This document shows positions 39,971 to 42,189 of a stretch of DNA of 64,000 nucleotides, in pieces. The position numbers and the translations under genes are program-made. Under the pieces are notes generated by a model that saw only the letters and a program-made list of their open reading frames with translations, had not been told where the DNA came from and did not search any database. How positions within the stretch are numbered: position 1 is the first letter of the stretch; the number at the start of each line of letters is the position of its first letter. The stretch lies in IMG/VR virus record IMGVR_UViG_3300009537_004349. One strand, given 5' to 3'. This DNA comes from a virus. Lineage: Duplodnaviria > Heunggongvirae > Uroviricota > Caudoviricetes.

Positions 39971-40708
39971 CTACATCCGTCTCATTCTTGCGTTCTTAAG
40001 CTCTTGTTCTCCCATCCACATAATGAGAGCAGCTAATAGACCGAGCCAAATTCCATTAAATACCCCTACTCCAAAATACGGAATATAGATACCAAGCGAC
40101 ATAAGAACCGCAGCTCCGATTGCCAGGCCACCGAATACCTTTCCAACATGTACGGCAATTTTGGTGGACTTAATAAAGTCTTTTGTCCTATGCCACACAC
40201 CAGCCCTTAGCACTCTTCCACCATCCATAGGAAAAGCTGGAATGAGATTAAAAGCCCCGAGCACTAAGTTAATGTACCCTAGAGTAATACAGCCTGCAGA
40301 CAACAATCCCTCGCCAAAAACTACCAGGCTAAGAATGCTGAATGTAAAAAGACCAATACCTAAGGCAAAACTTACTGCCGGTCCAGCTATAGCAATCCAA
40401 AATTCTGACTTGGCTGTTGGAGGATGCCTATCAAGACCAGCTACTCCTCCAAAGATGTGAAGCATAATGCTTCGACACCCTACTCCAAACCGTCGCCCTG
40501 TTAATGCATGCCCATATTCATGCGCCAAGATTGATGCTAGGAACCCAAGTCCCGTTACGAGTGCTGCTACTGTAGCGGTTACAGGATGCAGCCCTGGCAA
40601 CACGCTCATATATGAGTCTGAGAACCAGTTTGTCAACAGAAATGTAAGAATTAGTGTAGTCCAGTTAAGGTATACATCAATCCCTAATATCTTTCCTAAA
40701 CGGAACAT
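39971..40708 (-). CDS. M50-family (site-2 protease-like) membrane zinc metallopeptidase
   Basis: HEYGHAL (HExxH) within TM segment plus NLIPAFPMDGGRVL (LDG motif); several TM helices. Confidence 0.7.
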   Translation of the reverse strand: MFRLGKILGIDVYLNWTTLILTFLLTNWFSDSYMSVLPGLHPVTATVAALVTGLGFLASILAHEYGHALTGRRFGVGCRSIMLHIFGGVAGLDRHPPTAKSEFWIAIAGPAVSFALGIGLFTFSILSLVVFGEGLLSAGCITLGYINLVLGAFNLIPAFPMDGGRVLRAGVWHRTKDFIKSTKIAVHVGKVFGGLAIGAAVLMSLGIYIPYFGVGVFNGIWLGLLAALIMWMGEQELKNARMRRM

Positions 40709-40728
40709 GTGAACCTTTCGAAGAGTAA

Positions 40729-40754
40729 GGGAGGCTAAGTTGCCTTAGCCTCCC
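40729..40754 (-). terminator. perfect 11-bp stem / 4-nt loop hairpin between SPFH and M50 genes (candidate terminator/attenuator or processing site)
   Basis: GGGAGGCTAAG-TTGC-CTTAGCCTCCC; weakly T-rich tail on the minus strand. Confidence 0.35.
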
Positions 40755-40763
40755 AAGTTAATT

Positions 40764-41948
40764 CTACTTACCCTGAGACATTTTGTTGCTGATGTTAATC
40801 AGCGATTCTAGACCAATTGCCGTAAAGGGGTCTACTGCCTTGCCATCACCACCACCAGCGATAAAGGTGCTGGGCAACTTGACATTAGCCAGTGCCTTGG
40901 CAACCTCGATAGCCGTTTCCTTTTCGATGTTGGCTCGGTCAAGAGGAGTAAGTCCAGCTTGCACCAAGAGCTTTGCAGCCTTAGCTTCAGCTTCCTTAAC
41001 AACCAATTGAGCCTTCGCATCCTCTTCGGCCTTCTTGCGGTTGAACTTAGCAACCTCGAACTCTTTCTCAGCCTTAGTTACAGCCGTAATCTTCTGAACT
41101 TCCTCATCAGCCTTTGCCTTAGCAATGCGTGCCTGACCTTGTTCAAACTCAGTAATGGCATCCTGCTTGGCACGCTCAGCATTGGATTTTGCAACCACCT
41201 TGGCTTGCTCAGCTTCCTTCTTCTTCGCAATCAGCTTGTCAATAGTCTCATCAAAGTCGATGTCCTTGATAACAAACTGCAGAACTTCGATGTTATATCG
41301 GAGCAACGGGGAAACCTTACGAACTACTGGGTTTCCATTGCCATCCTTTTTAACCTCGACAATACGCTCAATGAAGTCGTTGCCTTCTGTATCCAATCTT
41401 CGCTCTTCACGAGAAGTGGTTTCAAAAATACCTTGTTCAACCTGGGACTCAGCCAATGTCGTGAACTCAGAACGCCTGGTTGAATAAGACTCTTCAGCCT
41501 TCATAAGTGTAGCGGTCTGCATCAAAGCCTCAGTAAGCACCTGACGAATCAAATCCTGTTGCACAGATGTATAGGACTTAAAGTCTTCGTGCAATCGAAG
41601 CTGGTCTTCTTCTCGCGTAGAAAGACGGAATTTTAGCGAACCACTAATGTCTGCAGTGCCACCATCGTTAAATCTAACGCTGATAGGTGCTGAGTGGAGG
41701 GAATCACCACCATCCGCCTCATGCTTTGAAAAGTAATTCATATCAGAAATACGATACTCATGAATATCACCTAACCACTGGCCATATACACCGGGCACAT
41801 TTCGCACTGACATATCTCCAGACACAGCAGCCTGCTTGACTTGATAATATCCAGCTCGATTGGTTTCTACTAATGAACTAGACAGCGAAACTGTCACAAC
41901 CAATGCCACTACTGACGCGGCAAGGATAAAAATAGCTTTGGGGCTCAT
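40764..41948 (-). CDS. SPFH/band-7 (flotillin/YqiK-like) membrane protein
   Basis: N-terminal TM anchor; SPFH-like core; long Ala/Glu/Lys-rich coiled-coil C-terminal tail typical of flotillin-like proteins. Confidence 0.6.
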   Translation of the reverse strand: MSPKAIFILAASVVALVVTVSLSSSLVETNRAGYYQVKQAAVSGDMSVRNVPGVYGQWLGDIHEYRISDMNYFSKHEADGGDSLHSAPISVRFNDGGTADISGSLKFRLSTREEDQLRLHEDFKSYTSVQQDLIRQVLTEALMQTATLMKAEESYSTRRSEFTTLAESQVEQGIFETTSREERRLDTEGNDFIERIVEVKKDGNGNPVVRKVSPLLRYNIEVLQFVIKDIDFDETIDKLIAKKKEAEQAKVVAKSNAERAKQDAITEFEQGQARIAKAKADEEVQKITAVTKAEKEFEVAKFNRKKAEEDAKAQLVVKEAEAKAAKLLVQAGLTPLDRANIEKETAIEVAKALANVKLPSTFIAGGGDGKAVDPFTAIGLESLINISNKMSQGK

Positions 41949-41976
41949 AGATTAACTTTCTCCTTCTAATCTAATG

Positions 41977-42189
41977 TTATTGATGTATAACTTCATCTAC
42001 CTTCTTTTGCTTTTCCCGAACTTCATCAAGGTCAATGTCTTTAACCCTGTCGTAATTATCATTCAATGCATCTACTTTGTCTAAAGTATCATCCACATCT
42101 ACACGTGTTAATGCACGCTTGGCTACACGATAGATAAGGTATCCTGCACCTAGAACGATTGCTAATGTTAAAAACGTACTAAGAACCAT
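41977..42189 (-). CDS. small membrane protein
   Basis: 70 aa; N-terminal TM helix then charged tail. Confidence 0.45.
   Translation of the reverse strand: MVLSTFLTLAIVLGAGYLIYRVAKRALTRVDVDDTLDKVDALNDNYDRVKDIDLDEVREKQKKVDEVIHQ

Follow-up and report, generated by a model that had tools for sequence, protein, structure and literature searches.

The question raised by this locus is whether a phage has joined an SPFH membrane scaffold to an intramembrane protease, or whether the genes for the two are only neighbours. The locus is located in a sequence of 64,000 nucleotides (nt) from the IMG/VR virus record IMGVR_UViG_3300009537_004349; this whole stretch is referred to here as the window. The cassette has genes for a small transmembrane (TM) protein, an SPFH protein and an M50 site-2-type protease, with a perfect 11 bp hairpin between the last two (Table 1). 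A preliminary description of this DNA named the four elements and their positions, and all four are confirmed; it is corrected in that every element of the cassette is on the reverse strand. By analogy with HflKC-FtsH, the SPFH protein may form a cage that is functionally coupled to the M50 protease, a reading that we hold tentatively, at a little short of an even prospect. Viewed as sequence, the cassette is a clean system of three genes for which comparison gives some support; a clear counter-example to an obligatory link is found in sister loci L006 and L007.

The protease matches Pfam Peptidase_M50 (PF02163) with 69.3 bits against a cut-off of 27.2 and an E value of 3.8e-19. By sequence, its first match in the PDB is the core of the site-2 protease (S2P) mjS2P (3b4r, E 5.9e-25), followed by SpoIVFB (E 3.8e-6). 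An AlphaFold2 (AF2) model made from 43 sequences (pLDDT 94.6) combines a pair of N-terminal strands with six long helices, and a second beta hairpin follows the HExxH helix. Foldseek aligns the model with 3b4r (E 2e-13, TM-score 0.70/0.78, 33% identity) and with SpoIVFB (E 2e-7), i.e., the six-TM core fold with membrane-reentrant beta hairpins is present. Two motifs are invariant in alignments of 7 phage-type and of 43 mixed phage and cellular sequences: H63-E64-Y-G-H67 and N154-x2-P157-x2-P160-x-D162-G163 (NLIPAFPMDGG), the latter being the motif of the third zinc ligand. An active enzyme is probable, since these catalytic residues do not vary between homologues from phages and cells. HEYGH was read correctly before; the second motif, given then as LDG, reads MDG.

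The chain ends at residue 245, just past TM helix 6, and it has no match to CBS (PF00571) or PDZ domains. The protein is a minimal site-2 core of six helices without the PDZ or CBS gating domains; the presence of PDZ (RseP group) or CBS (SpoIVFB/mjS2P group, SpoIVFB itself carrying a CBS domain) marks subgroups of S2P proteases and not membership of the family. Close relatives are rare: only seven are present in a collection of 5.8 billion proteins, with 45–88% identity, lengths of 241–248 amino acids (aa) and phage-like contigs. The next relatives are cellular M50-CBS proteins of ~375 aa that are ~40% identical and carry PF00571. A public gene call of this protein, P0002 (212 aa), is 100% identical and covers 87% of the 245-aa reading frame. 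It appears to be N-terminally truncated at an internal Met start, with loss of ~33 residues that comprise the beta hairpin and the first TM helix; the 245-aa form is favoured by its homologues and by a good ribosome-binding site (AAAGG).

The SPFH protein matches Pfam Band_7 (PF01145; 45.9 bits, cut-off 23.6, E 8.4e-12) and PHROG 11908 (E 4e-51). Both profile matches that the preliminary description proposed as checks, Band_7 and Peptidase_M50, are thus above their cut-offs, and the structure models agree with them. No relative of the SPFH protein is found in the PDB by sequence alone. The AF2 model (pLDDT 78) shows a helix at residues 3–26, a mixed alpha/beta region at 27–232, a long helix of 97 residues at 234–330 and a further helix at 335–354. 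This is the layout of the superfamily, with an N-terminal TM anchor, the SPFH domain, a long helix and a C-terminal cap segment. Over near full length, Foldseek matches the model to cage subunits of HflK/C (7vhq), prohibitin, erlin, stomatin and flotillin with E values of 8e-10 to 1e-7; other matches are 7wi3 and 9cz2 (HflK/C) and the QmcA chain 8z5g. In 38 sequences there are 111 lysine and arginine (K/R) residues before the TM anchor vs 26 after it, so the protein is predicted to be anchored N-in with its SPFH domain and body in the periplasm. The SPFH gene is single, in the window as in all sister loci, so this is not an HflK/HflC pair, and no NCBIfam model, those of HflK and HflC included, matches the protein.

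The small partner has one hydrophobic helix, at its N-terminus, and after it a basic stretch and an acidic helix. Ten members of its family have 2 K/R residues before the TM helix vs 33 after it, from which the topology is predicted to be N-out/C-in with the acidic helix in the cytoplasm. Homologues are located directly 5' of the SPFH gene in phage loci L001, L005, L008 and L011 and in cellular loci L024, L033, L044 and L045 (tblastn and alignment). The protein has no Pfam, NCBIfam or PADLOC match. An NfeD identity was considered and rejected, since the protein is too short, has no OB-fold and matches no Pfam or NCBIfam family; the likeness to NfeD/SPFH operons drawn in the preliminary description does not hold for this gene.

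The order small TM - SPFH - M50, together with the hairpin, is found in the window and in three other phage loci: L001 (88% identity to the window M50 and 90% to the window SPFH protein), L005 (52% and 78%) and L008 (52% and 72%). L011 (45% and 31%) has the order M50 - small TM - SPFH, with no hairpin, and the M50 stop and the small TM start overlap by 4 nt. The L011 SPFH protein represents a second subfamily, which is ~30% identical to the window type and 66–71% identical to many other phage SPFH proteins. Two SPFH lineages are therefore located beside one M50 lineage, and this is the best argument that the adjacency has been selected. L006/L007 have an M50 gene (76% identity) that stands alone, without SPFH gene or hairpin.

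A different association is seen at positions 4811–7579 of L131, where a small TM gene and an SPFH gene of the L011 subfamily are followed by a 173-aa open reading frame (ORF) and a ClpP-family protease (Pfam CLP_protease, 4e-25; NfeD1b_N, 1e-7, under its cut-off). This may represent a second phage SPFH-protease pairing with another protease class. Just 5' of the small TM - SPFH - M50 genes, L008 (3545–4021) and L009 (4532–5008) encode a 158-aa protein with a prepilin N-terminal methylation motif (PF07963, 5e-10). The consecutively numbered ORF097c and ORF098c of Aeromonas phage 44RR have the same two Pfam matches, prepilin motif and Band 7 (Table 3 of PMC1524935).

In the mRNA sense the hairpin reads GGGAGGCUAAG-GCAA-CUUAGCCUCCC and has 11 perfect pairs, 7 of them G-C, with a GNRA tetraloop. 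It starts 9 nt past the SPFH TAG stop and ends 20 nt ahead of the M50 ATG. In a scan for perfect stems of at least 9 pairs with loops of 3–8 nt, it is the longest perfect hairpin of the window. Four distinct hairpins of this kind are observed vs ~0.85 per base-shuffled copy of the window, and by our arithmetic roughly 0.1 hairpins of 11 pairs are expected by chance; the hairpin is beyond chance. The 76 nt intergenic RNA folds at -26.7 kcal/mol, with a z of -3.3 relative to dinucleotide shuffles. The possibility that the genome uses hairpins of this sort as a general intergenic element was rejected because this is essentially the sole strong one in 64 kb. No Rfam family matches it.

The preliminary description made its proposal depend on the presence of the hairpin in related genomes, and there it recurs with changed sequence. 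The stems and loops are GGGGCUAGG/GUAA in L001, GCUGGGUUAGG/GAAA in L005 and GGGGCCAGU/UUA in L008, each at the same site, past the SPFH stop and ahead of the M50 ribosome-binding site (AAAGG). The sequences differ between the four lineages, and some of the pairs are preserved by compensatory changes. In L006/L007 and L011, where M50 is not preceded by SPFH, M50 has no upstream hairpin; the element is therefore a part of the SPFH 3' end. A separate conserved and strongly pairing stretch (GUGGGCCUCGCGGAC...GUCC(A/C)CAGGGGCAC) is located between the SPFH stop and a 45-aa TM ORF (MPALLD...) in L013 (~6280–6330), L014 (~6205–6250), L017 (~6180–6230) and L018 (~6235–6280). It has no Rfam match and could be a cis-regulatory RNA.

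Relatives of the SPFH gene are also present in cells. The protein collection has hundreds of proteins that are 55–70% identical to the window SPFH, and a scan of species-representative genomes yielded 22 SPFH loci, mostly in metagenome-assembled genomes (MAGs) of Spirochaetota. The spirochaete chromosomal orthologues are 55–65% identical to the phage protein. The window SPFH is far nearer to them than to its phage homologues in crAss001-like Bacteroides phages, Vibrio phage pVp-1 and relatives, and the T4-like phages 44RR, Aeh1 and RB43, which are 27–34% identical; in crAss001-like phages the genes are annotated as SPFH. Thiospirochaeta perfilievii (CP035807; L024, 5581–9203) has the order ftsH - 70-aa small TM - SPFH. 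Its SPFH protein is 63% identical and its 70-aa protein is homologous to that of the window (tblastn 9e-8, and alignment). The complete ftsH - small TM - SPFH order is also present in L033, and ftsH is directly 5' of SPFH in L032. A homologous small TM gene precedes SPFH in L044 and L045, and a 139-aa single-TM gene is in that place in L046. Small TM and SPFH form an old two-gene unit common to phages and cells, mainly Spirochaetes. The ftsH - small TM - SPFH arrangement of Spirochaetes is possibly an unrecognised FtsH-associated system with a single SPFH gene. The analogy to SPFH-protease operons drawn in the preliminary description gains support in that cellular orthologues of SPFH and small partner are directly 3' of ftsH, but the unit is neither an NfeD operon nor an HflK/HflC pair.

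Another group of spirochaete MAG loci (L025, L029, L030, L035 and L038, ~7170–8470) has a DUF401 membrane protein of ~420 aa within ~12 nt of SPFH, followed by a 2-TM protein of ~140 aa, with no upstream small TM gene (Pfam DUF401, 4e-59 in L025). DUF401 and the 2-TM protein are an alternative conserved partner set for the window-type SPFH family.

How the parts could work together can be proposed as follows. The joining of the small TM - SPFH unit to a minimal M50 protease in one phage clade is observed, as are the identities, order and conservation of the parts, the cellular origin of the SPFH pair and its ftsH neighbourhood in some cells. The SPFH protein, N-in and with a periplasmic body like HflK/C, would oligomerize into a cage that fences a patch of the host inner membrane, and the M50 protease would work inside or beside this patch. 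The cage would limit the TM helices that reach the otherwise ungated protease, as HflKC does for FtsH. The stem-loop after the SPFH stop would keep the M50 message below the SPFH message, either by partial termination or as a barrier to 3'-to-5' exonucleases after excision of tRNA-Leu. For the second route, the tRNA follows M50 at once, so that its excision would leave an unprotected 3' end and the hairpin would then shield the SPFH message. Both routes predict more scaffold than protease message, and the outcome would be that many scaffold subunits are made per protease. The substrate could be a single-pass protein of host or phage.

A more specific form of this proposal, which we consider unlikely, is that the cage replaces the missing PDZ/CBS gate. 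A cell-derived unit that accompanies FtsH would have been re-paired with an M50 protease, and the phage would cut specific single-pass proteins of the host membrane with it, e.g., anti-sigma factors or defence effectors with a TM segment. If so, it would count as the first complex of an S2P with SPFH and as the first regulated intramembrane proteolysis system encoded by a phage. The host roles put forward in the preliminary description (anti-sigma factors or defence proteins as targets, remodelling of membrane microdomains) are likewise hypothetical.

The explanation that competes best with functional coupling is that the genes are neighbours and not partners, which is a real possibility although we would not call it probable. 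Small TM, SPFH and hairpin would be a self-contained moron with its own terminator that landed between tRNA-His and a pre-existing M50 gene. The moron would have its own membrane-stabilising or exclusion role, and the independent M50 would do an unrelated job, e.g., clearance of signal-peptide remnants or cleavage of a host regulator. A number of observations are consistent with this or weigh against coupling. L006/L007 are collinear with the window but without the p58 - small TM - SPFH - hairpin segment. There M50 immediately follows a tRNA-like sequence and neither SPFH nor a small TM gene is close by, which shows that M50 can stand alone and that the SPFH-M50 link is not obligatory. The four lineages with the same order are related phages, so that common descent rather than selection may account for their synteny. 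For L011 there is a single contig of 3.1 kb. The ftsH adjacency is present in 3 of the 23 cellular loci examined, and those three are closely related.

The surveys of other loci weigh in the same direction. In phages and cells alike, SPFH is widely found with its small partner and without M50. No M50 gene is found within the 5–6 kb flank of SPFH in seven IMG/VR contigs with window-type SPFH (L012–L018), a huge-phage record (L023) and five contigs with L011-type SPFH (L128–L132), and no SPFH gene is near the distant M50 of three phage records (L020–L022). Nor is there an SPFH gene nearby in the 81 M50 loci listed (80 from metagenome contigs and one viral), which are mostly cellular-type. The matches listed in the metagenome profile scan with the M50 alignment are 31–43% identical and apparently mostly cellular-type, the sister phage loci not being among them. 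With single proteins as queries against IMG/VR, SPFH retrieved 7 loci, all lacking M50, and M50 retrieved nothing useful; a profile built on the phage-type M50 alignment retrieved one distant IMG/VR locus, without SPFH. The huge-phage records with a distant M50 or SPFH (LR756511, LR745206, MT835496 and LR756500) do not have the pairing. The closest CBS-less cellular M50 proteins (P0055 and P0081) are in ordinary cellular contexts without SPFH. The SPFH genes of T4-like phages, recognized as Pfam Band 7 matches, have been on record since 2006 with no protease partner noted (PMC1524935).

The hairpin also bears on this alternative. It goes along with SPFH and not with M50, and the SPFH genes of unrelated phages (L012 and L016) are also followed by strong stem-loops or terminators, that of L012 being a classic terminator with a U-run. 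The hairpin may be a plain terminator of an inserted SPFH cassette. Its U-tract is not conserved, which is a further difficulty for the proposed mechanism: the tails of L005 (AUCAUAAAGG) and L008 (UUAACCAACU) are U-poor. Partial termination, the function suggested in the preliminary description, is one option only. The window hairpin passes a lenient terminator scan, but its U-tract is weak, with 5 U in the 8 nt of its tail UUACUCUU, and a U-tract is not evident in L005 and L008; a barrier to 3' exonucleases is no worse an explanation. The same lack of a conserved U-tract makes read-through into M50 likely, which counts against a moron closed by its own terminator. Two other points also count against mere neighbourhood. 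L011 keeps the three genes adjacent in another order, with overlapping M50 and small TM frames and another SPFH subfamily, which is hard to explain via inheritance alone, and cellular SPFH orthologues adjoin ftsH in three loci.

A second alternative is a relation of enzyme and substrate, where M50 would cut the N-in anchor of SPFH, or the small partner, and would dismantle or release the cage at a defined stage of infection, e.g., before lysis. We regard this as improbable. S2P substrates are typically N-in/C-out (type II), and the SPFH anchor has this orientation; without a PDZ size filter, M50 might also accept uncut substrates. There is a precedent in the STOPP/NfeD protease PH1510, which in work by Yokoyama and Matsui reportedly cleaves its operon partner, stomatin PH1511. 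This pair is named in PMC4208085. Against this explanation, the small partner has the opposite orientation (N-out), the SPFH anchor has no obvious helix-breaking motif conserved in the family, and M50 is present without SPFH in L006.

The setting of the cassette is that of a phage genome. We read the window as the accessory arm, rich in tRNA genes, of a jumbo phage of ~292 kb that is uncultivated; the exact SPFH protein is also on record, in the protein collection, from a JGI contig of 291,701 bp. ARAGORN finds 27 tRNA genes in the window (e.g., at 45231–45308), all on the minus strand, spaced mostly a few hundred bases to several kb apart and interspersed with small ORFs. Coding is on one strand with small ORFs, and the larger ORFs mostly match PHROG families, including a T4 Rnl1-type RNA ligase and a NinI-like phosphatase. 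No structural (virion) genes are seen within the window. When the DNA of the region is compared with GenBank phages, the matches are confined to tRNA genes (tRNA-Leu), which indicates that there are no cultured relatives. The last alternative, that the region is cellular or a misassembled bin and the cassette an ordinary bacterial membrane quality-control operon, might be suggested by the spirochaete identities of SPFH and by the cellular M50-CBS proteins as nearest non-phage relatives of M50, but it is hardly credible given the co-oriented tRNAs, the one-strand coding with small ORFs, the PHROG matches, the sister contigs with the same phage-like layout and the lack of an SPFH gene nearby in the M50-bearing cellular-type loci examined.

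Table 1. Features of the cassette and its boundaries in the window
Feature	Positions	Strand	Basis or remark
tRNA-His(GTG)	42389–42463	-	ARAGORN; Rfam tRNA 62 bits; upstream boundary of unit
58-aa soluble ORF	42197–42373	-	Between tRNA-His and small TM gene
70-aa single-pass membrane protein	41977–42189	-	ORF list; partner of SPFH gene
394-aa SPFH/Band_7 protein	40764–41948	-	Pfam, PHROG, AF2, Foldseek
Hairpin, perfect 11-bp stem and GCAA loop	40729–40754	-	In 55-nt spacer, SPFH stop to M50 start
245-aa M50 site-2-type protease	39971–40708	-	Pfam, PDB sequence match, AF2, Foldseek
62-aa soluble ORF	39780–39968	-	Between M50 and tRNA-Leu
tRNA-Leu(TAG)	39695–39779	-	ARAGORN, Rfam; downstream boundary of unit

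The genes of the cassette are tightly packed and co-oriented. The two soluble ORFs are probably not parts of the module because they are not conserved: the 58-aa ORF has no family match and tblastn finds it neither in L001 nor in any other locus tested, and the 62-aa ORF has no significant family match and no tblastn match in sister loci. In L001 and L008 the cassette is likewise preceded by tRNA-His and closed by tRNA-Leu, which begins there 1–2 nt past the M50 stop codon. A tRNA-like sequence is present directly 5' of M50 in L006 (~5885–5980) and L007 (~65–160), in the slot that tRNA-His occupies in the window, L001 and L008. It has matching acceptor ends and a T-arm (GGTTCGAGTCCCG), the body is over-long, and ARAGORN makes no call. 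None of five proteins matches a PADLOC defence-system profile, and an identity as a known anti-phage defence system was rejected on this basis.

Other features of the window concern translation and metabolism. One tRNA has a CTA anticodon and is an amber suppressor, labelled 'Pyl' by ARAGORN; CTA tRNAs are also present in L005 (5007–5080) and L006 (2672–2749). Recoding of TAG, considered in view of this tRNA and the TAG stop of SPFH, was rejected, as ORF coverage gives no signal for it. Stop-to-stop ORF coverage is 87% with the standard code, removal of any one stop results in similar small gains, and TAG terminates 27 of the 125 window ORFs. The Rnl1-type RNA ligase (46836–47942, minus strand; Pfam RNA_lig_T4_1, 1e-20; PHROG 562) is in the tRNA-rich region and its gene is also present in L006 and L009; the location among tRNAs suggests tRNA repair. 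At 56399–59497 (minus strand) a nicotinate phosphoribosyltransferase (386 aa) adjoins a glutamine-dependent NAD synthase (CN_hydrolase and NAD_synthase, 644 aa). The pair represents two Preiss-Handler-type steps to NAD and could restore NAD during infection. The ORF at 38481–39773 (minus strand), in its longest reading with a GTG start, runs into tRNA-Leu, and its true start is probably the ATG at residue 34 (MSRTIIIGGG...). It has a DFP-like domain (PF04127, 2e-9) and a weak class II aldolase-like C-terminal half, and it matches PHROG 35624.

In the literature searched, no paper combines SPFH, phage and site-2 protease, and a survey from 2009 of SPFH operons in prokaryotes makes no mention of M50 or of phages. 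The logic of SPFH cages is known for few protease partners, namely FtsH, m-AAA, NfeD/STOPP and PARL, and the structures are now understood. If the SPFH-M50 pairing is true, an intramembrane zinc protease joins this list, and the cassette provides a small three-gene system for the control of substrate access by a cage. It would also be a candidate phage tool for editing the inner-membrane proteome of the host, an area in which hardly any phage factors have been characterised. Should the genes be no more than neighbours, the analysis still defines a widespread small TM - SPFH unit, present in Spirochaetes and many phages, and a rare phage M50 protease.

Several known systems have features in common with the cassette. 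SPFH cages partner membrane proteases in HflKC-FtsH, in stomatin-STOPP/NfeD and in prohibitin with m-AAA. To our knowledge, SLP2-PARL-YME1L (SPY) is the only well-known precedent for an SPFH scaffold with an intramembrane protease. The cassette shares with HflK/HflC-FtsH of E. coli an N-in anchor and periplasmic SPFH domain (both predicted here), a long wall helix, a C-terminal cap and a membrane zinc metalloprotease as partner; in addition, the structural matches include HflK/C and cellular orthologues adjoin ftsH. It differs in that it has one SPFH gene without HflK/HflC NCBIfam match, has an extra 70-aa partner, is phage-encoded, and has an ATP-independent intramembrane M50 protease and not the AAA+ protease FtsH. 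The stomatin-NfeD/STOPP systems (P. horikoshii PH1511/PH1510 and E. coli QmcA-YbbJ) are also operons in which an SPFH protein is joined by a small membrane partner, a membrane protease or both, whereas the partner in the cassette has no NfeD OB-fold, the protease is a zinc M50 and not a ClpP-like serine protease, and the SPFH domain is predicted to be periplasmic rather than cytoplasmic. The mitochondrial SLP2-PARL-YME1L complex likewise associates an SPFH scaffold with an intramembrane protease, but PARL is a rhomboid serine protease, the system is eukaryotic with no operon, and the sequence relation is limited to the SPFH domain.

On the protease side, mjS2P (MJ0392 core, 3b4r) and SpoIVFB (8vjl/8vjm) have the whole six-helix core, the catalytic motifs and the reentrant beta hairpins in common with the phage M50, which differs in having no CBS domain, in being phage-encoded and in that no BofA/SpoIVFA-type inhibitor genes are evident. 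The SPFH genes of the crAss001-like, pVp-1 and T4-like phages are homologous, with the same PHROG 11908, and no M50 neighbour is noted or observed in these records. By analogy, the cassette would resemble the known SPFH-protease pairs in its working, but it belongs to none of those families because it has one SPFH gene, no NfeD and a protease of another class.

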